A stretch of DNA of 64,000 nucleotides from a virus (IMGVR_UViG_3300049460_000196:32001-96000); one strand, 5' to 3'; positions 7,388-42,335 are shown, counted from the first letter of the stretch. Numbers and translations are program-made. Notes: generated by a model from the letters alone, not told the origin.

Positions 7388-7490
7388 AACAGAATCGTTG
7401 CCCACTAACCATTGGAGCAGTCAGAGCCGGCTTTCACCAAGCCCCGACAGGAGTCGAACCTGCGATATTTTATTTGCTGTAACGATTCTA
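7388..7490 (-). ncRNA. Y-RNA(YrlA)-like permuted tRNA mimic, ACAGCAA family 1
   Basis: Closing stem AGAATCGTT/AACGATTCT, ACAGCAA, then T arm, closed acceptor hairpin, D-like arm. Confidence 0.75.
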
Positions 7491-7495
7491 TGAAT

Positions 7496-7624
7496 AACAG
7501 GATGGTGGTTTTTGCTGCTCTTACGAGCGATGCTGTCCTAACTTAGACTACAGCCCACAGGCCGACGGGATTCGATACCCGCACACACACCTTGAAATAG
7601 CGGTAAATTGCTGTGACCATCCTA
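7496..7624 (-). ncRNA. Y-RNA-like permuted tRNA mimic, ACAGCAA family 2
   Basis: AGGATGGT-C-ACAGCAA...T arm, acceptor hairpin, D arm...ACCATCCTGTT. Confidence 0.72.
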
Positions 7625-7673
7625 CAAACTTTAGACCACATGGTAGCACGTTTTTGCCACCATGCAACCTTTA

Positions 7674-7994
7674 TTACTTCCAGATGTTAACCGTGATTTC
7701 AACTACTGGATCCGTACAGTCACGATATGGCTTCAAGGGCAAATACCAGTCCTCGCAGTCGCCAAAGCTATATTTGCTCGACGTCCGCTGCACGAGTTTA
7801 TCCTCAAGCGCGTCTTTGACCAGATGATCGATGTAGCCATATTCTGATCCATAGGCATCTTCGAATTTCTCTATTCGGCGAGTGCTTACTTCTTGCACAT
7901 GACGACTATACTCTTCTTCGATGCCAGTTTCGTAATCGGTCAGGTATGTTACCTCAGTGAAACGCAGTATTTTGTGAACCATGTTATCAAGCAA
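7674..7994 (-). CDS. Hypothetical protein
   Basis: 106 aa ORF. Confidence 0.65.
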   Translation of the reverse strand: MLDNMVHKILRFTEVTYLTDYETGIEEEYSRHVQEVSTRRIEKFEDAYGSEYGYIDHLVKDALEDKLVQRTSSKYSFGDCEDWYLPLKPYRDCTDPVVEITVNIWK

Positions 7995-8181
7995 TGCTGA
8001 GCAATACCCTGGTTACCGATTGTGCGATTTCGGCAGTGCTCATGCCAACAGTGGTGACGTTTTGTTCGCCAGCATGGGCCAGATGATAGACCGAACGATA
8101 GATCAGGTCACGTTCATCTTCCGTTTTAGCAGCGGACAGGGCGGAGCGGTATTCGTGGATTTGTTTGGCCGAGATAGTCAT
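7987..8181 (-). CDS. Hypothetical protein
   Basis: 64 aa ORF with SD. Confidence 0.6.
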   Translation of the reverse strand: MTISAKQIHEYRSALSAAKTEDERDLIYRSVYHLAHAGEQNVTTVGMSTAEIAQSVTRVLLSIA

Positions 8182-8234
8182 GTTGTTCCTTGTTGTTTTT
8201 ATTCATGAAAAGGGCCCACCGAAGTGAGCCCTTG

Positions 8235-8376
8235 CGGGTTGTTTTGCCTTTAGGCCAGTGCATTAGACCACTCTGCCATCCTTGGGACGAAGCCTGAGGA
8301 GTGGGATTCGAACCCACGAAGTAAGCCTTGGCGAGGCTCCTTGCCGGCTTGTGTATTGTTTGCTGTACACAACCCA
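8235..8376 (-). ncRNA. Y-RNA-like permuted tRNA mimic, ACAGCAA family 3
   Basis: GGGTTGT...ACAGCAA; T arm GTGGG-TTCGAAT-CCCAC precedes Ser-type D arm TGGCAGAGTGGTCTAATGCA; closes with ACAACCC. Confidence 0.78.
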
Positions 8377-8381
8377 AAATT

Positions 8382-8530
8382 AACAGGATCGCGATGGATT
8401 GAACCATCTTTTAGTCGGGCGCGTCTACCGGTTTCGCCACAGACGAAAGATTTCGCTTTCGCCCGGGAGGGCTCGAACCTCCATGCCTTGCGGCACCTGA
8501 TTTCCGTTTAGTGTTGCTGCATCGATCCTA
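8382..8530 (-). ncRNA. Y-RNA-like permuted tRNA mimic, ACAGCAA family 4
   Basis: AGGATCG-AT-GCAGCAA; variable arm and T arm precede Leu-type D arm TGGCGAAACCGGTAGACGC; closes with CGATCCTGTT. Confidence 0.78.
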
Positions 8531-8549
8531 AAACTTGTTACTTGTCTGT

Positions 8550-8578
8550 ATTAGAACACGGCGTTTCTGGAGTGTCAA
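8550..8578 (-). promoter_or_regulatory. Sigma70-like promoter for the Y-like RNAs
   Basis: TTGACA-17 nt-TCTAAT. Confidence 0.65.
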
Positions 8579-8752
8579 CCTGTGCGACAACTGGTTTTTC
8601 ATCTTTGTTATCATCTTTCTTACCAAAGATAGCATCCCAACCAGTACGATACTTGTCGCTTGATGGTTTCGTCACCAGTGCTTCGCCAGTCACATCATTA
8701 TAGTGCATGTCAGTTCCTTAAAACCCATATGATACATGACGATCTCGTGTCG

Positions 8753-9286
8753 TCAATATGTATCAAATACCAGATGTATTCGTGTTTGATCACTGGCATT
8801 TACTGCGGTGTGCATTTCATTTGTCTTAAAACGATACAAACGCCCCACCGTTACCATACGTTCAATCTTATCGGCATTTACGAAAAAGCATCTGGGATTA
8901 GTATCGATGGGAATATGATACCGGAACTCTTCAACATCACGATGCAATGTATAGCAAGTCTTTGGTTGCAAATACATGAAGCGAATACGCCCAATATTCA
9001 CATTGTCAATTACCGCTTGTGCTTTCACGGCATCAATCACAGTTTCCATATAGGTGCCATGGAAGTGTTGATTCAATATCGCGAAGTCATGTGTGAACCG
9101 ATCAAAGACATTCAAGTCGTAGTTAAACAGCGGGCCTACACTTGAGAACCATCCTGAATCAGTTTGGGAATGTGTTACTGATAATTGCTGCCAGGTTTGG
9201 AATTCTGGCAGCAATGTAATATCTGGAATCGTACTTTTGATTCGTTGAGCAGCAAAAGTATTGGGGGTGGCGGTGATTGATTTCAT
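8753..9286 (-). CDS. Asp/Asn beta-hydroxylase-like 2OG-Fe(II) oxygenase
   Basis: GRIRFM...LHRD...RYHIPI.TN...HTAVN...RIHLV. Confidence 0.8.
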   Translation of the reverse strand: MKSITATPNTFAAQRIKSTIPDITLLPEFQTWQQLSVTHSQTDSGWFSSVGPLFNYDLNVFDRFTHDFAILNQHFHGTYMETVIDAVKAQAVIDNVNIGRIRFMYLQPKTCYTLHRDVEEFRYHIPIDTNPRCFFVNADKIERMVTVGRLYRFKTNEMHTAVNASDQTRIHLVFDTY

Positions 9287-9307
9287 ACGGGTATTTACCC
9301 GCTGGTA

Positions 9308-9565
9308 CTATTGCATTACCAGAACCTCGAAACCCAACTGCATCTTGTTCAACTCTGCAATCACATACGTGACGTAATCGAAATTTGGAACATTACGCAT
9401 TTGCGCCACCCGGGCGGCATCATCTGCGAATTTTACCAAACTATTGGCATCGCCGTCACTTACCTCATCAGGTATAGCCACCAAGACAAATTGTGGCGCA
9501 CGGCCCACCATTATGATACGCCGTACTGGCGTAATAGTGGCTTGGGGAATGTCTTTCAATTTCAT
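9308..9565 (-). CDS. Hypothetical protein
   Basis: 85 aa ORF. Confidence 0.6.
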   Translation of the reverse strand: MKLKDIPQATITPVRRIIMVGRAPQFVLVAIPDEVSDGDANSLVKFADDAARVAQMRNVPNFDYVTYVIAELNKMQLGFEVLVMQ

Positions 9566-9618
9566 TTTATCTTTCCGGCATTCAGGAAATCACATATTAC
9601 ATGGCACCAACCCAAAAA

Positions 9619-10224
9619 TCAAGTCTTAAATGAAAGATCATGTTCGACCTGTCTTGTCGCCCAAGCTCGTTCACTGCAATGAAAGCATTGACCACATGCT
9701 GGAATTGAGTCATGTTTCGGGCACGACCGAGTCAATTCCAATAATTCAGATAAGCCCAATGTCTCGTACAGGTAAATGGTTGCACGCTTATCGAAGGTAA
9801 CAAATGGAGTGGCATAACCACGATACTTATTATCCATCGCAGTTAAGGGACGAGATGGAGCTGGCCCCGTGTAATCCCAGTCAAACGGATTCTGGGTTAC
9901 ACCTGTGTACAGCCAATCCATAGTTTCCATCGTTTGATAGATGTCACGACGCAGCTTATTGTCGATCAACACGAACTCATGTTCACGAGACTTCAACTCT
10001 ACGTTGAATTGATTTTCTAACCAACCCAACGTATTGCTGATACTTGCATTCTTGAGACCATTACGGAAAACTGTATAGATCTTATCAGGCACCAACCCAT
10101 TTGCCAACAGTAGATACATGAGGATCACACTGTCAGCGCCACCGGAATACGAAATACCCGTTTGTCCTTCATGGATGGGTATTATCACATTCCGGTATGG
10201 AGTTGGATAAATGACTTCGCGCAT
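9619..10224 (-). CDS. QueC-like PP-loop ATPase
   Basis: SYSGGADS PP-loop and C-terminal TRSC...CGQCFHCSER zinc motif. Confidence 0.75.
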   Translation of the reverse strand: MREVIYPTPYRNVIIPIHEGQTGISYSGGADSVILMYLLLANGLVPDKIYTVFRNGLKNASISNTLGWLENQFNVELKSREHEFVLIDNKLRRDIYQTMETMDWLYTGVTQNPFDWDYTGPAPSRPLTAMDNKYRGYATPFVTFDKRATIYLYETLGLSELLELTRSCPKHDSIPACGQCFHCSERAWATRQVEHDLSFKT

Positions 10225-11819
10225 TACGATTTGATACCTTTACTTTGCACCGATTCTTGGTCAACCTCTTCCAAGAATGTGAAAGACGAACTCGCACTCA
10301 ATTCATCCAACAGTGGTTTAATATCGCTACCGGTGGCTTCCTTCGTTGCCAGGAAGAAGTAGATGGGTGGCGACACGAAGGTAATACCTGGGCATTCCAG
10401 CGTAACTCGGAACCACATTTGTTTCACCAGTACACCAACTCCCAAATCTGCATTTGGGTCAATACGAATTTGAACCACGCCCGTGTTAGTCACGAATGAT
10501 TTACTCATGATTGCTTCGATGGACTCGTTACCATACGATAACGAGAAGACTGCATTTTCGCCATTGGCTTGTGCCAACGTACTGGCCGGCATCAACATCT
10601 TGATGTCAACAAACATGCTATCATCCATTCCCAACACTTCAACACCCAGATATTGAATATTGTCATCTGGTAATGAGCTAGTATCTGGACGGTGCAAAAG
10701 CTTATTCTCAGCTTGCGACACATTGGTTTGCAAAATCAACGCATTCAATGTTGCGTCGTCGATGATGGCTTTGGTAACATCAGCTGACAATGGAGCACTT
10801 GAACGCAAACTATACAAGACACTTGCGACACCACTAACAAAAGCTGCCGAGAACGACGAACCAGTATTGGTGCTATATTGATTCGTTGTATTGATAGTTG
10901 GCACCGCAACCATGTCACCTGGTGCATATATGTCAATCTTTTTATTCACGCCATATACGTTGTAGAGCGCACGATCATCTTTCGAACTGGCGGCTACCGT
11001 AAACACACCTGGAATACCAGCTGGGGTAACATCGTCAATGTTGAGATCACTATTGCCAGCCGCAGCTACCACCGTGATACCAGCAGCCAAGAGGGCTGCG
11101 ATCTTTTCATCCAAGTAGGCACTACGCGGAATAGCCCAGCTCAGATTGACTACCTTTGGCACTGTTAGGGTGCTTGTGTGGTGAGATAAGATGGCGTCAA
11201 AGATGTCACCCAATTCACCAAGGGTTGGTTTGCGATCTTTGCTGCTGATCTTAACATTGCTGATTGTTGCGTGTGGATTCATACCCAATGTCGCACCTGC
11301 CACCAATGCCGCGATGGCGGTGCCGTGACCCAAGTCATCAGTGCCATCAGTATAGAAAGGCACGGAGAACAAGTCTTCAATAGCTGTATTGGCAAATTCA
11401 GCATGGGTGGCATCGATACCACTGTCCACGATGATCACTTCGACGGGACGTTGAGGTGTGATGTCGGCAAAATATGGATTAGGGATGAATGGACGATATC
11501 GATTTGCGATGCGATTTTCTGCCCATTTGTTAACTGTGTCATCAGCCAACATCTTGATAGGAGCATCAAATGGCTCCATCACTTCGCCTGCTTTGATGCG
11601 TGGAACTGGATCTGCTTCTTCCTCGGTGACCCAGGTACCGTCATCTTTACGGACGTGGAATTGAATGGCGTCGCCTTCAGTTTCCACTGTATCGATCCCA
11701 TCAAATTGTAGAGCAAGATTGATTAAGCCAATGTTTACTTTGTCAATAGATACTTCTCCGGTCATTGCCAGAAAAGCTGCTTCACGTTCCGATGTTTTGA
11801 ATGTGAGTTTTAAGAACAT
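10224..11819 (-). CDS. S8 subtilisin-like serine peptidase
   Basis: IVDSGID, GHGT, AAGN, GSSFSA catalytic motifs; start placed at MFLKLT behind GAGG. Confidence 0.88.
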   Translation of the reverse strand: MFLKLTFKTSEREAAFLAMTGEVSIDKVNIGLINLALQFDGIDTVETEGDAIQFHVRKDDGTWVTEEEADPVPRIKAGEVMEPFDAPIKMLADDTVNKWAENRIANRYRPFIPNPYFADITPQRPVEVIIVDSGIDATHAEFANTAIEDLFSVPFYTDGTDDLGHGTAIAALVAGATLGMNPHATISNVKISSKDRKPTLGELGDIFDAILSHHTSTLTVPKVVNLSWAIPRSAYLDEKIAALLAAGITVVAAAGNSDLNIDDVTPAGIPGVFTVAASSKDDRALYNVYGVNKKIDIYAPGDMVAVPTINTTNQYSTNTGSSFSAAFVSGVASVLYSLRSSAPLSADVTKAIIDDATLNALILQTNVSQAENKLLHRPDTSSLPDDNIQYLGVEVLGMDDSMFVDIKMLMPASTLAQANGENAVFSLSYGNESIEAIMSKSFVTNTGVVQIRIDPNADLGVGVLVKQMWFRVTLECPGITFVSPPIYFFLATKEATGSDIKPLLDELSASSSFTFLEEVDQESVQSKGIKS

Positions 11820-11820
11820 G

Positions 11821-12762
11821 TTATTCCTCTTTATTAATTTGGGCAAGCGCATGGCGCTCGCGTAGAACTTCCGTGATCTCTTCTGGAAGCTCCAATAAAC
11901 TATCGTATTCTGGATACTTACTGTGATGCGGTAATCTGAAAAACTTTTCAAATGCCCAGCCATCACCAGTCATATTGGCAAAATGTTCTTTCACCAATTC
12001 AAACCCTGTATACTTCTGTTGCTGTGGAATAACACTCAAACCCAATCTGTGCATACCGGTCACCTTCGCGATGTAGCGAAGTGCGATATCGGTTGGCATA
12101 TCGGGCTGAAACAGCATGAAAGGTAAGGCGATGTCAAGTGTATATCCAAGGAAATTTCCTACCAAAGGATATTTATTGATTTCAGCAAACGTCATCCAGA
12201 CACTATGACTGCGATTGGAAATGAACTCCCATTTGCCATCTCTTATACATGGTGGATTGCCGCCGCAAATAATAGCTGATGGAGCAAACCGTTCAATCAG
12301 CATTTCGTAGAAACGGCAATGGGCAGATAGCTGTGGCGATGGACAGTTGTATTTGACCACATAGGATGGAAGGTCGCGGCCCAGAAAACTCAATATGTTG
12401 AAGTCAACCAGCGTGTACTTGAATCTATGTGTTGTGCAAAAGGTGATGGCGGAAGAAACGTCATGGATATTCAGGTCATCACGAAATTGCATAATCACAA
12501 TGGTGAATTTCACATTAGCTCGTCGCAGCAAAAGGCATGCCGCCTGACTGTCAATCCCACCACTCAAGGCAACATATATGTTTGGCCCCAAAGATGCGGA
12601 AACGCTTGCTATTGACGCCTGCTGACGAGCCAGGAGTTCGGAAGGGATATAAGCACCAGTAAGTATATCAAATTGAGCGCCAGCTGACATCCGCCAAACC
12701 AGTTTGTTGACTGGTTCGACCGTGGGGGACAACCATTTTTCATGAAAAATACCTGGGGTCAT
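11821..12762 (-). CDS. PP-loop (adenine nucleotide alpha-hydrolase) protein
   Basis: IYVALSGGIDSQ motif. Confidence 0.7.
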   Translation of the reverse strand: MTPGIFHEKWLSPTVEPVNKLVWRMSAGAQFDILTGAYIPSELLARQQASIASVSASLGPNIYVALSGGIDSQAACLLLRRANVKFTIVIMQFRDDLNIHDVSSAITFCTTHRFKYTLVDFNILSFLGRDLPSYVVKYNCPSPQLSAHCRFYEMLIERFAPSAIICGGNPPCIRDGKWEFISNRSHSVWMTFAEINKYPLVGNFLGYTLDIALPFMLFQPDMPTDIALRYIAKVTGMHRLGLSVIPQQQKYTGFELVKEHFANMTGDGWAFEKFFRLPHHSKYPEYDSLLELPEEITEVLRERHALAQINKEE

Positions 12763-12809
12763 TATGATATTTATAATACTTTATTAGCATATTATTGTAC
12801 TAATGCAAC

Positions 12810-13472
12810 ATGATAAATATGAATATGATAAATCTCAATAACTTTAAGGGCATTATTGACTGGCCCACCTTTGGTTTCCTGCATAATGACAACATGCTGA
12901 GTGACGAAGATTTCGCACTCTTGAACGCATATGACTTCCGCAATTGCCAATTACCAGCAGCTGAAGGCAATCGACGAATGAAACAATTCTGGTTGAATCA
13001 ACCGTTCGACGAAAGTGATCCGGTTGAAATGCTGATCAAGCGATTGCTGACTCAACTCAATAGTTGGGACGTACTAAAAAAGTTGATTGAAGATTCTTTG
13101 GCGGCAAACAATCTGGTACCAAGTGATGTCTGGAATGGCACTATCGAGGACGTCGAATCACATTATCTGGGTGTCTTCTGTGCATTCAATGAAGACTCAG
13201 ATGCCTATTACCTGAAGCCACATCGAGACTCTCGCCCAGTAATGCAGCTTTACATCAGCCCAGATGGAGCACCGGTTGGTACACGTTTTCATGTGATGGA
13301 AGATCACAGTATAATGAAACAATTACCATTCAAGGCCAATACGGGATATTTTCAGCTACCATTGAAGCGCGGGGTTCATAGTGCCATGGGTGCGGACGGA
13401 GTCACGCGGCGGTCATTGCTGTTCGGTTGGAACATGATGTATAGCAATAATCTACACCATCGAAATATATGA
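12810..13472 (+). CDS. 2OG-Fe(II) oxygenase-like protein
   Basis: PHRD...GTRF...HS...RRSL; TAAATA late-promoter motif at start. Confidence 0.65.
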   Translation: MINMNMINLNNFKGIIDWPTFGFLHNDNMLSDEDFALLNAYDFRNCQLPAAEGNRRMKQFWLNQPFDESDPVEMLIKRLLTQLNSWDVLKKLIEDSLAANNLVPSDVWNGTIEDVESHYLGVFCAFNEDSDAYYLKPHRDSRPVMQLYISPDGAPVGTRFHVMEDHSIMKQLPFKANTGYFQLPLKRGVHSAMGADGVTRRSLLFGWNMMYSNNLHHRNI

Positions 13473-14384: not shown

Positions 14385-15273
14385 TTAGTACCACTGAGAT
14401 TACATGGTCCTCGTTGACGCTTCGAACATTATTAGCCAGGATTGCGTCCCAACCTTCTTTCGATATCCACTAGAGCCCCTTTCGGGTAATCTAGTACGCC
14501 AACATCATCGCCGTTTTAAGTCAGGCAGTAGACTTGACACAGGGTGCTATTCTACGACTTTCCATCCGTTGACATTCGACTGCCATTAGAGCTTGCGGGC
14601 CCTACGAACTTCTTTTCATAAACCAACTAGGCCTTGCGAGCTTCGCTGAACTTGATTAACTTTCGTCTCAAGTATTAGATGATTTTCACACCCTGCCGAG
14701 GTAGACTTTGCATTTTGTATAAGTAAACGGTTTGATCGTTCGCTCTTTCTCCAATGAAAGTGCCATTTCTGGCGTGCAACTCACTGCGACGTGCTACCTC
14801 AGCTGCTCCAAAGTCTTTTGGACTCCAGAATACAACACGCCACGTATCTTTCGCCTCGCGGGCTACCGGATCGTCTTTCTCGACTAATGTCCACACCCTT
14901 GCGGATAGTCCACCAACCGATAAAACTGCATCATACCTCTTGGGTGCGACCCCTCGAAACATAACACTACCTTTCCCCGTACAAGATGGCAAGTTGGATT
15001 TGTGATGAGACTCGGCTCCCGCCATGTTCTCCCTCAACTGATGTTCCCTAACGAGCAAGCCCGCTAGGCATCTAAGCCAAGGTTCTTTCCATCACTCTTG
15101 CGTCCCAATTATCTCCAGGATAACCTGAAGTGCTTCCTTTCGGAAGCCGGGTCGGCTTGCATAACAGAACCACTTGCATGGCGCGGCTGCGTGAGCTTGA
15201 CCGCTTTCCCCGGGTTGCCCCGGCTCTTCCTTCCAATATACGGCAAGCCGTATACCGTGGAGCTATGCCCCCA
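14385..15273 (-). ncRNA. Large structured ncRNA, GOLLD-like
   Basis: ~890 nt with no convincing ORF and many GNRA-capped hairpins; segments GTGTTGTATT...CAAAAG, GACTTAAAA and terminal GTAATCTCAG match my recollection of GOLLD; next to tRNAs. Confidence 0.6.
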
Positions 15274-22476: not shown

Positions 22477-22539
22477 CTGCTACTCCGTGTTCGTTTATCT
22501 TGTTCCTATTATAGGCGTAGATGAACAAACAATCAAGTA

Positions 22540-22752
22540 TTAGTCACGTTTGTTTGCCAGTTCGTTCAACTGTTTGCTGAGGTCGGCGTCGGTTTCGGCG
22601 GTGATCACGCCCAGCTTAACCATGTTGTTCATGGTACCACGATACACTTCAAACTCGCGGTTATCGAACGACTCAACCATCACGTGCTCGCGACCAGTGT
22701 CGCTGTCGAAGGTGTCGTAGTTGTGTTTGATCTGCGCGTTGATGATATACAT
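22540..22752 (-). CDS. Hypothetical protein
   Basis: 70 aa, SD AGGAG, promoter upstream. Confidence 0.7.
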   Translation of the reverse strand: MYIINAQIKHNYDTFDSDTGREHVMVESFDNREFEVYRGTMNNMVKLGVITAETDADLSKQLNELANKRD

Positions 22753-22817
22753 GGTCGCTCCTGCATTTGTGTAGAATCACATTATAGACGCAGATGAACA
22801 GAAAATCAAGTAATATT

Positions 22818-23095
22818 TGGTGGACCAGAGCGGAATTGAACCGCCACGACGTCGCGAACGTCTTTCCCAGTGCGGAGGACTTGTACTCACCTGAGTAGCC
22901 CAGCGAAGCACCAATACATGATGCTTTGGTGGACTATGGGGACTCGAACCCCCTCTCCCTGGCCCGTAATGATCAGCCTCGTGGGGCTTGTCCCACAATC
23001 TCCGCCATTAGATGTAGCGGTGCTGAATCACGCTTCTGAAGCTACTCGCTTGAAGCCGATCATTACGAGCGACTGTTGCCAGTCACCCAGCTGGT
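22818..23095 (-). ncRNA. Tandem Ala-acceptor tRNA-like RNAs
   Basis: Two T arms, each followed by ...GTCC-A-CCA (ends at 22818 and 22927); 15 bp stem in the upstream unit; D arms atypical. Confidence 0.5.
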
Positions 23096-30312: not shown

Positions 30313-31065
30313 TGGGGGCGGGTGGAGGACTCGAACCTCCGACAACGTCCTTACAAGGGAATTGAGGGTTATGCTGTGACTATCCTGATCAGGATCGTGC
30401 CTTTCGGCTTCTACAGCTAAATAAGGTCGCGAGATTGCAGTCTCCACCTTTCTAACGCTTTCAAGGAGCATCAGCATGGATATTTATCCGCCAACTTTTC
30501 TTTATATAAAACAACACGCAATTACTGGCAAACTTTACTTTGGCAAAACCGCAAAGGACCCAGAAACTTATTTGGGATCAGGCACTTATTGGCGCAAGCA
30601 TATCAAAAAACATGGAACAGAACATGTCATTACTGTGTGGTATTGTTTGTTTTATGACACGACAACAATAAGTGAATTTGCATTATCATTTTCGGCAATG
30701 CACAACATTGTTGAATCTACAGATTGGGCAAATCTTAGGCCTGAAAATGGTCTAGATGGTAACCTTCCTGGAAATGTCCCGTGGAATGTCGGACTAGAAG
30801 CACACAATAAAGGCACAACCAGTCCAAACAAAGGGCGAACTTTGTCAGTTCGTTCTCAAGAACATAAAGACAAAATATCAGCAAGCTTAACTGGTAAAAC
30901 CAAGTCTAGTAAACCTCAACCCAATCGAAAAGCACGGGTACATGTAAAACACGACACCGTAATCTGCCCTCATTGCGGAAAAACTGGCGGAAGTAATATA
31001 ATGGGTAGGTGGCATTTTTCTAATTGTCCAGCTAAGACGTGCTCTACCAACTGAGCTAACCCGCC
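30313..31065 (-). tRNA. tRNA-Thr(TGT) interrupted by a ~680 nt insertion
   Basis: 5' half 31035-31065 (GGCGGGT..CGTCT) and 3' half 30313-30357 (CT TGT AA GGACG..ACCCGCC-C-CCA) are complementary. Confidence 0.8.
30476..31054 (+). CDS. GIY-YIG (Seg-like) homing endonuclease with NUMOD3
   Basis: FLYIKQH..TGKLYFGKT..Y.GSG; RSQEHKDKISASLTGK; CPHCGK; CTAAATA upstream. Confidence 0.88.
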   Translation: MDIYPPTFLYIKQHAITGKLYFGKTAKDPETYLGSGTYWRKHIKKHGTEHVITVWYCLFYDTTTISEFALSFSAMHNIVESTDWANLRPENGLDGNLPGNVPWNVGLEAHNKGTTSPNKGRTLSVRSQEHKDKISASLTGKTKSSKPQPNRKARVHVKHDTVICPHCGKTGGSNIMGRWHFSNCPAKTCSTN

Positions 31066-34587: not shown

Positions 34588-34593
34588 TCATAT

Positions 34594-34657
34594 AACTGGA
34601 TGCCATTCTTTGGTTTTCGGAAAAGGAAAATTTAGAAAGGTTTGCTGTTGGCATCCA
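34594..34657 (-). ncRNA. ACAGCAA family 5 (short, pyrimidine-rich loop)
   Basis: TGGATGCC-A-ACAGCAA...GGCATCCAGTT. Confidence 0.65.
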
Positions 34658-34724
34658 AAACTTGGTAGGATAAGTCAAGTATTCCCTTTGGCGGGGAACG
34701 TAGTTTATCAAACTTATCCAAAAC

Positions 34725-36658: not shown

Positions 36659-36711
36659 GTTATTATTCTCGGGTTGATTTAAAATCTCCGAGACATTGTC
36701 ATCGGAGCAGC

Positions 36712-36738
36712 TTAGATTGTGATGACAAAGTGGTACAT
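36712..36738 (-). CDS. Micro-ORF MYHFVITI (candidate leader)
   Basis: SD GGAGG; ORF segment TTGTCATC pairs with downstream GATGACAA. Confidence 0.45.
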   Translation of the reverse strand: MYHFVITI

Positions 36739-36769
36739 GATAGCCTCCATGGCTGGTTAATAAAATGTT

Positions 36770-36846
36770 TGGAGCGGATAGCGAGGTTCGAACTCGCGAC
36801 ATTCACGTTGGCAACGTGATGCTCTACCAGACTGAGCTATATCCGC
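36770..36846 (-). tRNA. tRNA-Gly(GCC)
   Basis: Cloverleaf, U73, CCA. Confidence 0.92.
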
Positions 36847-36852
36847 ATTGTT

Positions 36853-36927
36853 TGGCGACGCCTAGGGGGATCGAACCCCTGACCTTCGGATGGACAATCC
36901 ACTGCTCTTCCGCTGAGCTAAGGCGCC
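36853..36927 (-). tRNA. tRNA-Asp(GTC)
   Basis: TT GTC CA, G73, CCA. Confidence 0.85.
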
Positions 36928-36980
36928 AATTTGTTAGGAAATTTCCTTAAAGATGATTTGCATTCATGTTTAAAGAAACT

Positions 36981-37056
36981 TGGTGGACGCGGTGGGGTTC
37001 GAACCCACGACCTTCGGATTAAGAGTCCGTTACTCTACCAGCTGAGTTACACGTCC
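36981..37056 (-). tRNA. tRNA-Lys(CTT)
   Basis: Cloverleaf, CCA. Confidence 0.92.
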
Positions 37057-37062
37057 GTACTG

Positions 37063-37138
37063 TGGTGGAAGTGGAGGGACTCGAACCCCCGTCGCACCGG
37101 TTAAGAGCCGGGCCTCTAGCCTGTTGAGTTACACTTCC
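37063..37138 (-). tRNA. tRNA-Lys(CTT)
   Basis: Cloverleaf, CCA. Confidence 0.88.
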
Positions 37139-37151
37139 AAGTGTATTTGAT

Positions 37152-37239
37152 TGGTGGGAGCAGTGGGGATCGAACCCACTCTGGACTTTCGTCTCGCCGG
37201 ATTAAAAGTCCGGTGCCTACCCAATTCGGCATTACTCCC
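37152..37239 (-). tRNA. tRNA-Lys(TTT) with long variable arm
   Basis: CT TTT AA; variable hairpin GAC-GAAA-GTC. Confidence 0.82.
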
Positions 37240-37249
37240 TGTGAAACAA

Positions 37250-37324
37250 TGGTAGGGCCGCAGGAGCTCGAATCCTGTTTGTCTGGTTAAAAGCCAGATA
37301 CTTCACCATTAAAGTTTCAACCCC
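37250..37324 (-). tRNA. tRNA-Lys(TTT)
   Basis: CT TTT AA, CCA. Confidence 0.85.
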
Positions 37325-37395
37325 TTTGATTTGACGTGGCACACGTCGATCTCGGGGGTGGCAGGAGCAATCCAATCAAACAACTACACTTGGAA

Positions 37396-37440
37396 TTACT
37401 TAGTCACCCCCGAAAGTTTGCCAGATTTGTCACTTTCCAT
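37396..37440 (-). CDS. Lys-containing micro-ORF MESDKSGKLSGVTK (candidate leader)
   Basis: SD AAAGGAG; 3' part TCGGGGGTGAC pairs with GCCACCCCCGA at 37342-37352. Confidence 0.55.
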   Translation of the reverse strand: MESDKSGKLSGVTK

Positions 37441-37470
37441 GACAGGCTCCTTTCAGAAATGTAATTTGGA

Positions 37471-37593
37471 TATTGCGATTTACCAGGTATCCCAATGACG
37501 AGACCAATCGCTCCAACAGGCTGGAGTTCCAGATGATGCGCATTCAACTCGCGTTGACCATACGTGCCACTCACGGCATAACACCTCGCAATA
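37471..37593 (-). ncRNA. Unknown structured RNA
   Basis: Closing stem TATTGCGA/TCGCAATA with internal hairpins. Confidence 0.4.
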
Positions 37594-37598
37594 AAACT

Positions 37599-37674
37599 TG
37601 GTGGAGGATATCGGGATCGAACCGATGACCTTTAGCTTGCAAAGCTACTGCTCTCCCAGCTGAGCTAATCCCCC
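37599..37674 (-). tRNA. tRNA-Ala(TGC)
   Basis: Canonical, G3-U70. Confidence 0.93.
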
Positions 37675-37764
37675 AGGGTGGCAATGTTTGTACCGGTATG
37701 GCAAACATCACCCGCACATGCCGACTAGAACCTTTTCAGGGGATGAGGACATGAACGTTTAACT

Positions 37765-37841
37765 TGGTCTCCAGTGCAAGATTCGAACTTGCGCCCCATG
37801 GTCCCAAACCACGTGGATTAACCTGACTTTCCTAACCGGAG
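37765..37841 (-). tRNA. tRNA-Pro(TGG)
   Basis: TT TGG GA, CCA. Confidence 0.88.
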
Positions 37842-37850
37842 ATAAAAACT

Positions 37851-37890
37851 TGGTATCTAGTACTGGTCTCGAACCAGTGACCTCATCGAT
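37851..37890 (-). pseudogene. 3' half (nt 37-76) of a split tRNA, probably Val(GAC)
   Basis: AT-CGATG-AGGTC-T arm-ACTAGAT-A-CCA. Confidence 0.85.
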
Positions 37891-38148
37891 TTAATCGATT
37901 GTACCGTTGACTTTTATTTGTACAAGATCGCTAAACATTTTAGAGATCCCACTCAACTCATTCAAATAATCTTCCGTCAACTTATCGTCTTCGGTTAATT
38001 CAACTTTTAAATTAAGTTCAGCTCTTTGTTCTTGTACTTGTTTGTGAATAAGTGCAGTGGCCACTTGCAATGTGTCGATTGGTAAACTACTCGCCAACAT
38101 AGCTACTGCATTCCGAAGTGCCAATATTTGTACTTGAGTTGATGACAT
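37891..38148 (-). CDS. Hypothetical protein (cassette cargo)
   Basis: 85 aa, SD AAGGAG; stop lies exactly at the insertion junction. Confidence 0.7.
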   Translation of the reverse strand: MSSTQVQILALRNAVAMLASSLPIDTLQVATALIHKQVQEQRAELNLKVELTEDDKLTEDYLNELSGISKMFSDLVQIKVNGTID

Positions 38149-38207
38149 ATGATTCTCCTTTAGAACAAACAGGATGCACATGTTTTTGTCATACCGCAAT
38201 ATTATTC

Positions 38208-38282
38208 TGGTACTCACGGAAGGAATTGAACCTTCGACCCTCTCCACGTCAAGGAGGCATTCTACCACTGAACTACGTGAGC
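38208..38282 (-). tRNA. tRNA-Val(GAC), carried in the cassette
   Basis: TT GAC GT loop, CCA. Confidence 0.88.
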
Positions 38283-38283
38283 A

Positions 38284-38637
38284 TTATCTTTTCTTGTTAC
38301 CCCAGGTAGGGGTCTGTCTGTGGCAGTTTGGACACAGAAATCTCAAATTATCTGGATGATTGTTGGTCTTTACCCCATCCATATGGTCGATATCCAAACT
38401 AAGTGGTTTACCGCACCAGTCACTTACTGCACAACATGAACAGGCATAACCGTCGCGTTCCGTTAAGAACTTGATCATCGCCGGGCTATTATAATGAACA
38501 GCACCTTGCAATATTTTCGGTTTGGTAACCGATATCCAGGTAAATGCGTGTTGGCATTTGTTCGAGCAGTATTTGCCATTAAATGCTGGCGGTTTATACT
38601 TTGTTGGTTTACCACAATTGATACATGATCTTTCCAT
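38284..38637 (-). CDS. HNH endonuclease
   Basis: CINCG..YCSNKC; LDIDHMDGVKTNNHPDNLRFLCPNCH; TATAAATA upstream. Confidence 0.9.
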   Translation of the reverse strand: MERSCINCGKPTKYKPPAFNGKYCSNKCQHAFTWISVTKPKILQGAVHYNSPAMIKFLTERDGYACSCCAVSDWCGKPLSLDIDHMDGVKTNNHPDNLRFLCPNCHRQTPTWGNKKR

Positions 38638-38675
38638 ATAAGCACCTTTTCAGGTATTTATAAGAGCGATCTGGT

Positions 38676-38710
38676 TCAACGATGTGCTCTACCAACTGAG
38701 CTAACTAGAT
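38676..38710 (-). pseudogene. 5' half (nt 1-35) of the split tRNA
   Basis: ATCTAGT-TA-D arm-CATCG-TT-GA; pairs with the 3' half at 37851. Confidence 0.85.
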
Positions 38711-38719
38711 ATTGAAACT

Positions 38720-38794
38720 TGGCAGCGAATCTAGGGCTCGAACCTAGGACCTTGAGATTCAAAATCTCCTGCTCTACCTCTGAGCTAATCCGCA
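38720..38794 (-). tRNA. tRNA-Gln(TTG)
   Basis: Cloverleaf, G73, CCA. Confidence 0.88.
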
Positions 38795-38803
38795 ACTGAA
38801 ACT

Positions 38804-38883
38804 TGGCGACCTAGATGGGTATCGAACCCACCTGAATATCTTCCGTGACAGGGAAGTGACCACTCCATGCAGTCCCCTAGGCC
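38804..38883 (-). tRNA. tRNA-Asp(GTC)
   Basis: CT GTC AC, CCA. Confidence 0.85.
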
Positions 38884-38900
38884 ATATTACTAATTGTCAA

Positions 38901-38972
38901 TGGTCCCTCGTGATGGAGTCGAACCACCCTATTAGCGTTCGTAGCGCCAATGCCGTATCCCACGGACGAGAG
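38901..38972 (-). tRNA. Compact tRNA-Arg(ACG)
   Basis: Same architecture as 20063-20134; CT ACG AA. Confidence 0.75.
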
Positions 38973-38984
38973 AAATATTCTTAG

Positions 38985-39070
38985 TTGCGGGCCCTGGATT
39001 TGAACCAGGACAAGCATTAGATGTCTCGGGATTATGAGCCCCGCGTGTTACCAGGTTACACTAACCCGCG
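38985..39070 (-). tRNA. Initiator tRNA-fMet(CAT) with long variable region, no CCA
   Basis: C1-A72 mismatch, G-rich anticodon stem, 17-nt variable region. Confidence 0.75.
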
Positions 39071-39100
39071 ACTAAGAATACTTGGTATTACATACTTGAA

Positions 39101-39179
39101 TGGTGCGTCAGGCAGGGTTCGAACCTGCATGTGTCCAGTTACCTTTCGCCTGGTTCGTAGCCAAGGGGGATACTGACGC
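39101..39179 (-). tRNA. Atypical tRNA-Arg(ACG), D-loop displaced into the variable region
   Basis: GCGTCAG-TA-TCCCC-CTTGG-CT ACG AA-CCAGG-CGAAAGGTAACTGGACACAT-T arm-CTGACGC-A-CCA. Confidence 0.68.
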
Positions 39180-39181
39180 TT

Positions 39182-39256
39182 TGGTAGTTCCTGTTGGGAT
39201 CGAACCAACGACCTTCGCCTTGTAAGGGCGCTGCGCTACCTCTGCGCCAAGGAACC
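39182..39256 (-). tRNA. tRNA-Val(TAC)
   Basis: Cloverleaf, CCA. Confidence 0.9.
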
Positions 39257-39272
39257 ATTGCATTGTTGATTG

Positions 39273-39349
39273 TGGTCGCTTCTGATAGTATCGACGTATC
39301 GTCTACCCCTCTTCACGGGGCCGCTAGTACCATTCTCAGCTAAGAAGCA
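39273..39349 (-). tRNA. tRNA-Phe(GAA), divergent T loop
   Basis: GT GAA GA loop; T loop GTCGATA. Confidence 0.65.
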
Positions 39350-39382
39350 AGTTTTTATCAACAACGATTTACTACAAAAATC

Positions 39383-39457
39383 TGGCAGGGAATGTTGGGC
39401 TTGAACCAACGACCTTCGGATTCAGAATCCGCTGCTCTACCTCTGAGCTAATCCCCA
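39383..39457 (-). tRNA. tRNA-Gln(CTG)
   Basis: Cloverleaf, CCA. Confidence 0.88.
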
Positions 39458-39474
39458 ACTGTGTACTACTAAAC

Positions 39475-39549
39475 TGGTGCCCCAGGATGGAATCGAACCA
39501 CCGCACGCTGCTTACAAAACAGCACCTCTACCATTAAGGATACAAGGGC
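39475..39549 (-). tRNA. tRNA-Thr(TGT)
   Basis: TT TGT AA, CCA. Confidence 0.85.
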
Positions 39550-39562
39550 GTAATATCGTTTG

Positions 39563-39647
39563 CTCCGAGAGCTGGATTCGAACCAGCGGCGGCCTTTACG
39601 GCGACGGATTAACAGTCCGGTCTCTGCTACCACTCGAGTACCTCGGA
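39563..39647 (-). tRNA. tRNA-Asn(GTT) with long variable arm, no CCA
   Basis: CT GTT AA; variable hairpin GCC-GTAAA-GGC. Confidence 0.8.
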
Positions 39648-39675
39648 GCAAACAATACTACCTATAAATCATATG

Positions 39676-39748
39676 CTGTCAAGACTGGGCTCGAACCAGT
39701 GACCCGATGATTAACAGTCATCTGCTCTACCAACTGAGCTACATGACA
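39676..39748 (-). tRNA. tRNA-Asn(GTT), no CCA
   Basis: Canonical cloverleaf. Confidence 0.88.
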
Positions 39749-39766
39749 GCATATGATTCATAAACT

Positions 39767-39844
39767 TGGTGGTGTTGGGCGGCCTCGAACCGCCAAGCAA
39801 CAGGATCTCGACCTGTTAGGTATACCAATTCCCTTCACAACACC
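39767..39844 (-). tRNA. tRNA-Leu(GAG), short variable region
   Basis: TC GAG AT loop, CCA. Confidence 0.75.
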
Positions 39845-39845
39845 T

Positions 39846-39922
39846 TGGTAGTCCCTGTTGGATTTGAACCAACGACCTATGCGTTATCAACACATTGCTC
39901 TAACCAGCTGAGCTAAGGAACC
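39846..39922 (-). tRNA. tRNA-Ile(GAT)
   Basis: Cloverleaf, CCA. Confidence 0.92.
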
Positions 39923-39930
39923 TTCGTATT

Positions 39931-39990
39931 AACGGGATGACTTTTGGTTTCTGTTTTCAAAAGAAGTTTTTAGTTGCTGTACGCATCCCA
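39931..39990 (-). ncRNA. ACAGCAA family 6 (short)
   Basis: GGGATG-CGT-ACAGCAA...CATCCCGTT. Confidence 0.6.
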
Positions 39991-40012
39991 TAAGTCTTGC
40001 GACTCATTTTCT

Positions 40013-40088
40013 TGGCTAGGGTTGATGGACTCGAACCACCGACATACGGGATCAAAACCCGCTGTTCTACCAACTGAACTAAACCCCA
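40013..40088 (-). tRNA. tRNA-Gln(TTG)
   Basis: Cloverleaf, CCA. Confidence 0.9.
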
Positions 40089-40099
40089 ACTGTAAACCA

Positions 40100-40174
40100 T
40101 GGTCGTTGATATTGGTATCGAACCAATCTCTATGCCTTATCAAGACATTGCTAATCCATCTCAGCTAATCAACG
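40100..40174 (-). tRNA. tRNA-Ile(GAT)
   Basis: TT GAT AA, CCA. Confidence 0.85.
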
Positions 40175-40184
40175 ATTTAATACT

Positions 40185-40261
40185 TGGCGGAACAGACGGG
40201 GCTCGAACCCGCGACCTTCGCCGTGACAGGGCGACGCTCTAACCAACTGAGCTACTGCTCC
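40185..40261 (-). tRNA. tRNA-Asp(GTC)
   Basis: Canonical cloverleaf. Confidence 0.93.
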
Positions 40262-40305
40262 AACGACATGCAGGGCAGTTTTGCCTCACATCATGTTATG
40301 AAATC

Positions 40306-40376
40306 TGGTGGACCGTACGGGACTCGAACCCGTGATAGAGCATTGCAAGTGCCCCGCCAACCCCTGAAGACAGCCC
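40306..40376 (-). tRNA. Compact tRNA-Ala(TGC)
   Basis: G3-U70, reduced D arm, 6-bp anticodon stem, CCA. Confidence 0.7.
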
Positions 40377-40396
40377 AGAAATCTTATTACTAAACT

Positions 40397-40472
40397 TGGT
40401 GCAGTCAACTGGTATCGAACCAGTATCCCCGGACTTTCAAACCGTCGCATAGACCATCTTTGCTATGACTGC
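40397..40472 (-). tRNA. tRNA-Phe(GAA)
   Basis: TT GAA AG, CCA. Confidence 0.8.
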
Positions 40473-40502
40473 ATGAAACTTGATTGCTCAAGTTCTAAAA
40501 CT

Positions 40503-40577
40503 TGGTGCCCCCGGTTGGTATCGAACCAACCTCTACGACTTTTCAGGCCGTCGCTAATCCATCTCAGCTACAGGGGC
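40503..40577 (-). tRNA. tRNA-Phe(GAA)
   Basis: CT GAA AA, CCA. Confidence 0.88.
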
Positions 40578-40604
40578 ATATTCACATTATTCAAATTCAC
40601 TATG

Positions 40605-40678
40605 TCAGATGTGAAGGGATCGAACCTTCGACCTCATGGTCCCAAACCACGCGCTCTCCCTGGCTGAGCTAACACCTG
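40605..40678 (-). tRNA. tRNA-Pro(TGG), no CCA; first tRNA of the array
   Basis: Canonical cloverleaf. Confidence 0.88.
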
Positions 40679-40874
40679 ACATAATAAACTTGAATAATGT
40701 GTGTAAATGAATGTCGATGAACTGATCTTCATTTACACACATGAACTTGATTTTACTATCCGCGTTATCGCCGCGTGTTCATCCCAAGTTCCGCCCATTT
40801 GACTCTCTTTTAAGTGTGAGCCGAGGATCTCGTTCCCTCATTTTCACTGTACTGCTTGCTGCTTTTCGTGTCCC

Positions 40875-40913
40875 AAAACAAAAAACCCCGGGACTTTTCA
40901 GTTTCCCGGGGTT
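40875..40913 (-). terminator. Intrinsic terminator (attenuator) before the tRNA array
   Basis: AACCCCGGGA-loop-TCCCGGGGTT followed by TTTTGTTTT. Confidence 0.85.
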
Positions 40914-40932
40914 CTGTGGAGGAGCTTAGACT

Positions 40933-41079
40933 TTACATCTTCGCTCGTCCCTTAATCCCGGGCACGGTAATATTAAACAACTTCGCATCAATCGCCAGCG
41001 GCCAGACAGCCATACGCACGGTCGCTGGAAGGCGGCGTGTCGCTTGCTGTTTAGGTTGATGGAAATTGAAGGCGTTCAT
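40933..41079 (-). CDS. 48 aa candidate attenuator leader peptide
   Basis: MNAFNFHQPKQQATRRLPATVRMAVWPLAIDAKLFNITVPGIKGRAKM; stop 20 nt before the terminator; contains CCCGGGA complementary to the terminator arms. Confidence 0.7.
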   Translation of the reverse strand: MNAFNFHQPKQQATRRLPATVRMAVWPLAIDAKLFNITVPGIKGRAKM

Positions 41080-41207
41080 TTTAATTTACTCGTTTCTCTC
41101 GAAAAGTTTATGCAGGGAACAACATTGCTCTCTGCTTCATATCTATTTAGTTAAGTGACTCAAATCCCTGCACAAAAGCACAGAAAACTGAGGTTTTAAC
41201 AAATAGC

Positions 41208-41342
41208 AACAAGTTTTAAGCCGTTCACTGTGGAAATTCGCATCCCACGTAATCGCCGCTGTACTATCCCCGCCGCCCCAGCACTACAAGAGCGCCTCAA
41301 ATGCGATTCACCGGCAGGAAACATGAAAGCTTAAAACTTGTT
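41208..41342 (-). ncRNA. Unknown structured RNA with its own promoter
   Basis: 14 bp closing stem AACAAGTTTTAAGC/GCTTAAAACTTGTT; TTGACA-17-TAGAGT at ~41359-41387. Confidence 0.55.
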
Positions 41343-41422
41343 ACCACTTAGTTTGTAACACTCTACAGCATAATTTATAAATGTCAAGAATTATTTTTGC
41401 CTTCTTGTCATTTATTTTCAGC

Positions 41423-41525
41423 TGTTAGGTTTGCCCCTGTCTGTTACCCAGGACTACTAGGCTATCGACCTGCGAACAAGTCTAAGCGCTCCATCTCGGG
41501 CGGATGATCAGAGGCAAACCTAACA
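41423..41525 (-). ncRNA. Unknown rod-like RNA with its own promoter
   Basis: Stem TGTTAGGTTTGCC/GGCAAACCTAACA; TTGACT-17-TAAAGT at ~41572-41600. Confidence 0.5.
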
Positions 41526-41703
41526 ACTGGCAATTTACTGCGTGCCACTTTGTTGCTGCATCATGTGTTGAACTTTACAGAACTAATTTCGTAAAGTCAA
41601 ACACTTTTTGAAATCTTTTTACAACAACGACATCTTGCTGTTTTGCTGCAACAGAAGCCACTTTACATGGCTTCCTGTGTCTGGTCAAATATGCTTTGAC
41701 TTT

Positions 41704-41950
41704 AACTGGATGGTCCGACGGTCGTTTTTACTGTTTATCGTGGAGTCCTCAGTAACGTAACTGTTGATGTCTTCCCCGGATCTAACCGAGCGTCAATCAA
41801 CCAGCCCTTTATAGTTACTGCCATCGACTACACTATGGCACCTCGCTGCACCATGCGTCTAGTTCACGTCCTACTAGCAAATAGTTGAGTCTCAAGTATT
41901 GCTACAATCTCCCAACACATCATTTTTAGGTGAGTTGCTGTACCCATCCA
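41704..41950 (-). ncRNA. ACAGCAA family 7 (long cargo)
   Basis: TGGATGG-GT-ACAGCAA...CCATCCAGTT. Confidence 0.6.
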
Positions 41951-42019
41951 AGGGTGTCAGATCGTTGATGCTTGCGTGATAGTTGCCTATCCCATGTGGT
42001 CCAACGATCCAACAAATTT

Positions 42020-42335
42020 AACAGGATTAGCTGTTTCCCTTTTCATTTAAGCGCACGTCAGGATCCATATACGCCGAGATGGATTACCATCATCATCTAG
42101 GTTTCTGTCTAGCCCATACAGGGTTCTCGTCCCCGACACAGTGTGAAGAACAGGTGGTTTTCACAACCCATTCGATCTTGTCACACGCACAGTTCTCCTC
42201 GTCCTCAACAATCCGCTTCAAAGCCACAGACAACTTCCGGCTCCACGAACTTTCCCACGCTGTCATAGTAGTTGAGGTGGAAAACAACACTTTTAAAGTT
42301 GGCTTTTTTAGTGTGTTTTGCTGTATCTAATCCTA
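42020..42335 (-). ncRNA. ACAGCAA family 8 (long cargo)
   Basis: AGGATTAG-AT-ACAGCAA...CTAATCCTGTT; TTGCAT-17-TATATT promoter upstream. Confidence 0.6.

Follow-up and report, generated by a model that had tools for sequence, protein, structure and literature searches.

Modular handle RNAs in a tRNA-rich phage as putative Y-RNA-like partners of a Ro60-like DUF2828/DUF7788 protein

The locus and its handle RNAs

The stretch of 64,000 nucleotides (nt) analysed here, called the window, corresponds to bases 32001-96000 of the 113,103-base IMG/VR virus record IMGVR_UViG_3300049460_000196, which is about 27% complete according to CheckV and is thus a piece of a phage genome of roughly 400 kb. It harbors a series of small modular RNA genes in which one common element, the handle (a stem formed by the RNA ends together with a CAGCAA motif on its 5' strand), encloses very different cargos, and these handle RNAs are probably adaptor partners of a Ro60-like protein encoded elsewhere on the same record. 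The window is densely packed with tRNA genes (50 according to ARAGORN, in addition to one doubtful call of a transfer-messenger RNA, tmRNA, all on the minus strand; 55 tRNA genes on the whole record), and at gathering level Rfam recognizes only tRNAs and a GOLLD RNA in it. No match was obtained when 5 kb of the window was compared with GenBank phages by megablast.

A preliminary description of this DNA had placed eight handle copies at 7388, 7496, 8235, 8382, 34594, 39931, 41704 and 42020. All eight are present there and all lie on the minus strand, on which the handle RNA features are read throughout; the positions given are the low coordinates, at which the minus-strand RNAs have their 3' end. 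Scanning the 113-kb record with a strict pattern recovered nine copies, every one of them on the minus strand, against about 0.05 expected from the control (20 shuffles, all giving 0 copies except a single one that gave 1). Copies F (39991-39927) and B (8376-8232) fall outside the strict pattern through small deviations that keep the register, and the record contains at least 11 handle RNA genes, eight in the window and three outside. The copies are the following (positions of the window, except for the last line, where G000 denotes coordinates of the whole record):

Copy D, 7386..7490, minus strand: handle UAGAAUCGUU/AACGAUUCUGUUAA with ACAGCAA; permuted tRNA body in which the T arm is followed by an acceptor stem capped with a loop of 9 nt and then by the D arm
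Copy C, 7494..7624, minus strand: handle UAGGAUGGUC/ACCAUCCUGUUAU with ACAGCAA; T arm, closed acceptor, D-like arm and an extra small hairpin
Copy B, 8232..8376, minus strand: variant handle UGGGUUGU/ACAACCCG with ACAGCAA; permuted tRNA body with a long variable arm (class II-like)
Copy A, 8380..8530, minus strand: handle UAGGAUCG/CGAUCCUGUUAA with GCAGCAA; variable-arm hairpin, T arm, closed acceptor of 10 bp, D arm and a second T-arm-like hairpin
Copy E, 34592..34658, minus strand: short form of 67 nt; handle UUGGAUGCCA/UGGCAUCCAGUUAU with ACAGCAA; small U/A-rich hairpin as cargo; tRNA genes on either side
Copy F, 39927..39991, minus strand: short form of 65 nt; handle AUGGGAUG/CAUCCCGUUAA with ACAGCAA, the -1 pair being G-C; tRNA genes on either side
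Copy H, 41702..41951, minus strand: handle UUGGAUGG/CCAUCCAGUUAA with ACAGCAA around a structured cargo of 223 nt
Copy G, 42018..42335, minus strand: handle UAGGAUUAG/CUAAUCCUGUUAA with ACAGCAA around a structured cargo of 290 nt
Further copies outside the window, G000 10931-10805, 100868-100797 and 105890-105765, minus strand

Copies A and B, and likewise C and D, form tandem pairs with a spacing of 3 nt, A being upstream of B and C upstream of D. Copy B ends in a 3' tail GCAA instead of GUUA.

Structure of the handle

The handle follows the consensus U-N-GGAU-nnnn-(A/G)CAGCAA - cargo - nnnn-AUCC-N'-GUUA(A/U), in which a covarying helix of 7 bp (N-GGAU-nn with nn-AUCC-N') is followed by a mismatch and then by a U-A pair. 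The combination of a stem with RCAGCAA had been recognized in the preliminary description and stands, whereas the gap of 0-3 nt given there is replaced by a spacer between GGAU and NCAGCAA whose length is fixed at 4 nt and only rarely reaches 5. Within this spacer the two leading nt are paired, a mismatch (often G.A) is usual at nt 3, and nt 4 usually forms a U-A or U.G pair.

Evidence for pairing comes from a search with an anchor covering the 5' half only (GGATNNNNNCAGCAA) in 80 phage loci that were fetched through the partner protein described below and not through the RNA. The anchor matched 138 times on the strand of the gene and 0 times on the other, and the sequence ATCCNGT was found at most 350 nt downstream in 95 of the 99 unique matches. 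Three to four pair types were seen at each of the positions that the search did not force: the -1 position is paired in all of the 95 handles (A-U, G-C, U-A), inner pair 1 in 94 of them with four pair types, and inner pair 2 in 92. Further inward, a mismatch prevails at position three (G.A in 36/95), and position four is paired in 74/95 (U-A or U.G in 69/95). An alignment of 53 distinct short forms gave the same pairing picture, which was lost when the partner columns were slid. The earlier remark that stem sequences differ but stay paired is confirmed by covariation in both sets (95 protein-anchored handles and 53 aligned short forms). Additionally, some of the pairs, among them a conserved outermost U.G, are of the G.U type and can form only as RNA of the handle strand. 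Rfam contains no family for the CAGCAA handle. Ribozymes such as hammerhead and twister, as well as K-turns and CRISPR-repeat mimics, were weighed on the basis of the motif and dropped, with no fit in sequence or in Rfam.

Cargo of the handle RNAs

The three cargo classes proposed earlier hold, with a circularly permuted tRNA body in four copies of the window, a short hairpin in two and a structure of 223 or 290 nt in the remaining two. In copies A, B, C and D the cargo opens with a linker, which in some cases leads into a long variable-arm hairpin; then come a T arm whose loop is of the GGUUCGA type, an acceptor-like stem closed by a loop of 3-9 nt, and a D arm. Copy K, located outside the window, shows the same permuted layout and represents a fifth tRNA-body copy. 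When compared by BLAST with the tRNAs of the record itself, the T arms of these copies match resident tRNAs at tRNA positions ~46-75 and the D arm of copy K matches them at positions 8-25, and copy D contains a stretch of 18 nt identical to a resident tRNA T arm. The tRNA parts are circularly permuted, with the handle occupying the place of the anticodon stem. In these copies a loop caps the acceptor stem, which carries no CCA, and they offer neither the anticodon loop nor the free acceptor end expected of a matured tRNA; they are tRNA mimics and not tRNA precursors. In copy A, a second T-arm-like hairpin (GAUGGUUCAAUCCAUC, window 8393-8408 region, minus strand) is found between the D arm and the 3' strand of the handle, which gives this RNA two T-loop motifs.

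The short forms E and F (65-67 nt) contain small hairpins and, taken together with copy I, range from about 65 to 72 nt; the other copies hold structured cargo of 74-290 nt. The large cargos of G and H gave nothing credible in a permissive Rfam search and no relatives by BLAST against all fetched loci. Among relatives of the system, 23 of 63 distinct short cargos contain a hairpin whose loop has 7 nt and the form of an anticodon loop (Y-U-NNN-R-N), compared to 1.3 in shuffled sequences, and the commonest 'anticodon' of these loops is UUU.

A Ro60-fold protein encoded on the same record

The preliminary description had stated that no Ro/TROVE gene is present in the window, which is correct, and had proposed to look for Ro60 or a related vWA gene in the rest of the genome. 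Such a gene, of predicted Ro60 fold, lies 21 kb before the window and was found by reading the open reading frame (ORF) that follows one of the outer handle copies:

DUF2828/DUF7788 gene, G000 9368-10783 (L037:9368-10783), minus strand: ORF of 471 aa

The handle copy at G000 10931-10805 sits in the 5' leader of this ORF. The encoded protein matches the Pfam families DUF7788 (6e-43) and DUF2828 (2.5e-28) and reaches 15.3 bits with vWA_Ro60, which is under the cut-off. The DxSxS motif of the adhesion site dependent on metal ions (MIDAS) is invariant in an alignment of 24 homologues. Sequence and profile searches of the protein against PDB returned marginal vWA matches only, and no paper on the function of DUF2828 was found in the literature searched. 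The AlphaFold (AF2) model (predicted local distance difference test, pLDDT, 82; predicted template modelling score, pTM, 0.80) presents a helical-repeat ring followed by a vWA domain with the MIDAS motif, and its 13 best Foldseek matches in PDB are all Ro60/TROVE/Rsr structures, aligned at full length with E down to 7e-10 and template modelling (TM) scores of ~0.6. They comprise Xenopus and human Ro60, Ro60 of the Thermus phage phiLo and Deinococcus Rsr, with ordinary vWA domains far behind. According to this predicted structure, the 471-aa protein is a Ro60-fold member of a family that lies outside the reach of the TROVE model. The DUF2828 homologue of one relative (G005:C1:114281-116781, the record of L005) appears as two segments, covering residues 9-134 and 125-468, with about 1.1 kb between them, and may be interrupted by an intron or a homing-endonuclease cassette.

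Linkage of handle RNAs and the DUF2828 gene

Starting from the RNA, the pattern GGATNNNNACAGCAA-N30-60-ATCCNGTTAA was searched against IMG/VR and returned 36 stretches, with paired stems in all of them. A DUF2828/DUF7788 protein is encoded by 17 of these 36 records. The gene was found in 12/12 records that are at least 26% complete and in 4/4 that are at least 90% complete, and no record lacking it exceeds 24% completeness. Starting from the protein, 66 of the 80 phage loci fetched by protein alone carry handles, of which 153 are on the strand of the gene and 0 on the other, 144 of the 153 being upstream of the gene; a handle ends at most 150 nt from the start codon in 53/74 loci. In these relatives most handle copies adjoin the DUF2828 gene. 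Arrays of three or four handle RNAs arranged head to tail with spacings of 2-8 nt were also observed directly before the gene (L147:4669-4975, L070:5731-5981 and L064:923-1057).

The association extends to a distant set of 79 loci from bacterial assemblies and metagenome-assembled genomes (Lachnospiraceae, Erysipelotrichaceae, Chloroflexota and others), whose proteins show 31-56% identity. Here the stem sequence differs by clade (GGUU, GGCU, GUGAC, AGAC and others) and CAGCAA is kept; it occurs 115 times in sense orientation in the 600 nt upstream of these homologues, compared to 10 times in antisense and 14 times in shuffled sequences (about tenfold), and a closing stem of at least 7 bp accompanies 84 of the 115. 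Among the aligned short forms the motif does not vary at all; in other handles a few variants with a single changed base occur. As judged from these sequences, the pairing of CAGCAA-handle RNAs with a DUF2828 protein recurs in many phages and bacteria; it was found in neither Rfam nor the literature searched.

A search for a second protein partner, in which ORFs of at least 90 aa were clustered, gave no other same-strand neighbor common across clades. Within clades, recurrent neighbors are a metallophosphoesterase, an AAA_33 kinase, a DSP phosphatase, an RNase H-like protein and RtcB, which are enzymes of the RNA-repair type. In a bacterial locus (L162), a ROOL RNA is located 1.6 kb downstream of the DUF2828 gene and is followed by RtcB (8050-8569 and 8901-10103).

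Interpretation and alternative explanations

Taken together, these observations suggest that the handle RNAs are putative Y-RNA-like adaptor partners of a phage-encoded, Ro60-like DUF2828/DUF7788 ring protein, which we consider the probable explanation; as an RNA-protein system, it is most likely Y-RNA-like with a new handle. The preliminary description had anticipated that one protein docks on many RNA adaptors in the manner of Ro60 and Y RNAs, and this idea gains support from the co-occurrence in both search directions, the common strand and the Ro60-like predicted fold, with binding itself being inferred from them.

Several observations weigh against the adaptor interpretation. Pfam TROVE (PF05731) gave no match at E<=1 on the whole record and the handle, a GGAU stem with NCAGCAA, contains none of the canonical Ro60-contact motifs (GNCGAAN0-1G/GGUCCGA/CGAA), so that the docking mode cannot be transferred from Ro60. 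Most copies of the record are 28-95 kb from the gene (the eight of the window 28-64 kb away, all on the same strand), and RtcB, an AAA_33 kinase and an Rnl2-type ligase were searched in the record fragment without finding any. The protein-anchored loci hold the gene by construction, which leaves the RNA-anchored set as the independent test of association; and another co-varying partner protein could be missed because the record is only ~27% complete.

The distance between most copies and the gene would be expected if the handle were instead a processing or stabilising clamp, which marks the units of polycistronic tRNA-array transcripts for a host or phage endonuclease and protects their ends independently of DUF2828, a protein that would by chance share the same tRNA and RNA-repair islands. 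Copies 2-3 nt apart, in tandem and between tRNAs, are also in keeping with such a clamp, and cleavage at the U-N-GGAU start and the GUU(A) end is needed in any case. However, the handle accompanies the gene in genomes that differ widely, with CAGCAA kept while the stem changes; handles are concentrated just upstream of the gene on its strand; all adequately complete handle-bearing records have the gene; and no other clustered same-strand neighbor (ORFs of at least 90 aa) is common across clades. We therefore regard the clamp as unlikely. The preference for the upstream position could in turn reflect a handle that is mainly a cis leader regulating the DUF2828 gene (for instance, an operator bound by some unrelated factor), in which case decayed or parasitic duplicates would account for the dispersed copies. 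A copy within 150 nt of the start codon in 53/74 loci and the one in the record's own leader agree with this possibility, but the dispersed copies keep perfect handles with compensatory changes and elaborate, differing cargo, and many of them are kilobases away in tRNA arrays, which indicates selection on trans-acting RNAs and makes the purely cis role improbable.

The match of T and D arms to resident tRNAs in permuted order raises the question of whether the copies with a tRNA body could be genuine tRNA genes in permuted or split form, matured by circularisation or by joining with anticodon-arm copies, with the handle as the joining or splice structure. The anticodon-loop-like 7-nt loops in about a third of the short cargos of relatives (23/63 against 1.3 in shuffles) and an interrupted tRNA-Thr gene of the window, whose insert contains an inverted handle-like hairpin (see below), could be read in this way. 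Nevertheless, this explanation appears very improbable, since the copies lack an anticodon loop and have loop-closed acceptor stems without CCA, the same handle alternatively encloses 220-290 nt of unrelated structure or nearly nothing, YrlA has the same permuted layout and is not a tRNA (PMC4201824), and no splicing endonuclease or ligase was found in the record fragment. Finally, short conserved words such as GGAT, ATCC, CAGCAA and GTTA could in principle be DNA-level sites (a recombination site or a protein-binding inverted repeat) that need no RNA pairing. This is scarcely credible: the orientation is absolute (138:0 and 153:0), the arms covary at distances of 30-290 nt and G.U pairs are possible on one strand only, and such strand-specific U.G and G.U pairs combined with the strand bias exclude a reading as a DNA site.

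Under the adaptor interpretation, the handle RNAs would share minus-strand transcripts with the tRNA arrays and then be cut into units. Tandem handle RNAs lying only a few nt apart imply that the units would need to be cut from longer transcripts, and the head-to-tail arrays of relatives imply that such cutting is precise at the GUU(A)/U-N-GG junction. The ends would then pair into the 7-bp helix, presenting beside it the unpaired NCAGCAA of the 5' strand, the A-rich 3' strand and the GUU(A) tail, and the DUF2828 protein would dock on this handle as Ro60 does on the terminal stem of a Y RNA. Depending on the copy, the cargo displayed in this way would be a hairpin resembling an anticodon arm, a larger fold, or a tRNA elbow built from the T arm, the D arm and the closed acceptor, and it may tether tRNA-handling or RNA-repair enzymes or serve as bait for host nucleases that cut tRNAs; a tethering or bait role is suggested by the combination of anticodon-loop-like hairpins, tRNA-elbow cargos and neighboring repair enzymes. 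Additionally, because a handle copy is located in the leader of the gene itself, the protein may limit its own synthesis (autoregulation).

If this holds, DUF2828, a large family, gains a concrete candidate RNA partner with a simple signature. The Y-RNA-like design would be multiplied here to about a dozen adaptors per genome, each with a different tRNA part, a multiplication that points to tRNA repair or to the decoying of host nucleases that cut tRNAs.

Other features of the window

Promoter and terminator scans gave little above background. By eye, sigma-70-like promoters can be placed ~35-40 nt before copy G and before the leader copy; that of copy G (TTGCAT-17-TATATT, ~40 nt upstream) was not listed in the promoter scan. 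Copy B is followed, likewise as judged by eye, by a T run and a GC-rich hairpin (~8233-8207), and the hairpin matches the terminator parts of Rfam sRNA models. Several sigma-70-like promoters are also present at window 40680-41700 on the minus strand (e.g., TTGACA-16-TAGAGT at 41387-41360 and TTGACT-17-TAAAGT at 41600-41572), and the stretches after them are apparently structured and non-coding, without a full handle or an Rfam match; one of them starts with GAUGCAGCAA.

At window 30331-31057 (minus strand), an insert of ~650 nt interrupts a tRNA-Thr(UGU) gene where the 5' strand of the anticodon stem meets the loop; this tRNA is called by neither ARAGORN nor Rfam. The insert carries an ORF of 192 aa on the opposite strand (30476-31054, plus) and, near its 3' end (~30397-30371), a handle in inverted topology, AUCCUGAUCAGGAU-AGUC-ACAGCAU. 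The GOLLD RNA lies in a tRNA-rich region at 14391-14843 (minus strand; 203 bits compared to a threshold of 150). The tmRNA call at 22538-23017 (minus strand), made by ARAGORN as a permuted form with the odd tag ASLKCIVVP, has no Rfam support at gathering level and is probably false.

Comparison with known systems

Ro60 with its Y RNAs is a classic RNA-surveillance particle and a human autoantigen, and its bacterial and phage versions have been barely studied so far. Ro60 genes of bacteria and phages have Y RNAs alongside on the same strand, some of them with tRNA-like domains (PMC4201824, PMC12135203). YrlA combines a Ro60-binding stem (GNCGAAN0-1G on the 5' strand) with a tRNA-like domain and YrlB is the short form (PMC4201824), whereas Ro60 of phage phiLo binds two upstream Yrl RNAs and recruits the polynucleotide phosphorylase (PNPase) of the host (PMC12135203). 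A survey by Aravind also described a ROT/TROVE protein with a tRNA-like partner in a small subset of jumbo phages (PMC7824862).

The system described here resembles Ro60 (Rsr) with YrlA, YrlB and phiLo Yrl1/Yrl2 in its protein, predicted to be a HEAT-repeat ring with a MIDAS vWA domain, in the small same-strand RNAs near the gene, and in RNA ends that pair and leave a conserved unpaired motif on the 5' strand. The RNAs are modular in both cases, with a YrlA-like permuted tRNA body (the order T arm, closed acceptor stem and D arm is found in copies A, B, C, D and K) and YrlB-like short forms. It differs from the Ro60 systems in that the protein belongs to DUF2828/DUF7788 and is unmatched by Pfam TROVE. 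Copies per genome are also far more numerous (at least 11 here), are spread through tRNA arrays and have cargos that comprise, in addition, anticodon-arm mimics and folds of 220-290 nt. As to position, YrlA is encoded within ~4 kb of the Ro60 gene on the same strand; the handle copies are on the strand of the gene in every case, one of them in the leader and the eight of the window 28-64 kb off, and in relatives most adjoin the gene. The YrlA model (RF02553, gathering 69 bits) reaches 15.7 bits in copy C and 37.7 bits in a relative in L147, covering the tRNA body only, and the handle RNAs, as judged from sequence, lie outside the YrlA family.

In circularly permuted tRNA genes of the Cyanidioschyzon merolae type, the 3' half with the T arm is encoded ahead of the 5' half with the D arm. 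The tRNA-body copies share this order, T arm before D arm, and differ in their closed acceptor, in the absence of an anticodon loop and of a bulge-helix-bulge (BHB) splice motif, and in having their ends paired in the handle.

A further likeness is found with the Class I RNAs of Dictyostelium and bears on the old question of what these RNAs bind. They are ~60 nt long and have a short terminal stem conserved in structure and not in sequence; an 11-nt motif comes directly after its 5' strand, the middle varies and the RNA closes with CUG (PMC7919456). They are reported as unique to dictyostelids, and their known binder is the RRM protein Rnp1A (PMC7919456). In the Rfam consensus (RF01414) the 11-nt motif ends in ACAGCAA. 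The handle shares with them a short stem that joins the ends and is directly followed by the conserved motif (C6, C9, A10 and A11 near invariant), an A-rich stretch before the 3' strand, the CUG end, the variable middle and short forms of ~60 nt. RF01414 is the sole Rfam match on the short forms in their region and covers the full length of the model, with 21.0 bits for copy I and 26.8 and 21.7 bits for two bacterial copies, below the gathering score of 41.5. Conversely, U3 of the 11-nt motif is not conserved here, and Class I RNAs are reported to lack tRNA-like cargo and have an unstructured middle, a Dictyostelium upstream sequence element (DUSE) promoter and a dictyostelid host, whereas the handle RNAs of the record belong to a phage and mostly carry structured cargo. 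Eukaryotic homologues with DUF2828 and DUF7788 (the 'longer' homologue search) were found in fungi and a dinoflagellate only, with no dictyostelid among them, and a search for a dictyostelid DUF2828 in Atlas gave viral clusters only.

It is possible, as a tentative extension, that the handle is the docking site of the whole DUF2828 Ro60-like branch in phages, bacteria and eukaryotes, that Class I RNAs, unexplained since 2004, belong to the same ancient ribonucleoprotein family, and that phages expanded it into a kit of tRNA-part mimics for the conflict over tRNA cleavage and repair; we hold this to be doubtful as a whole.

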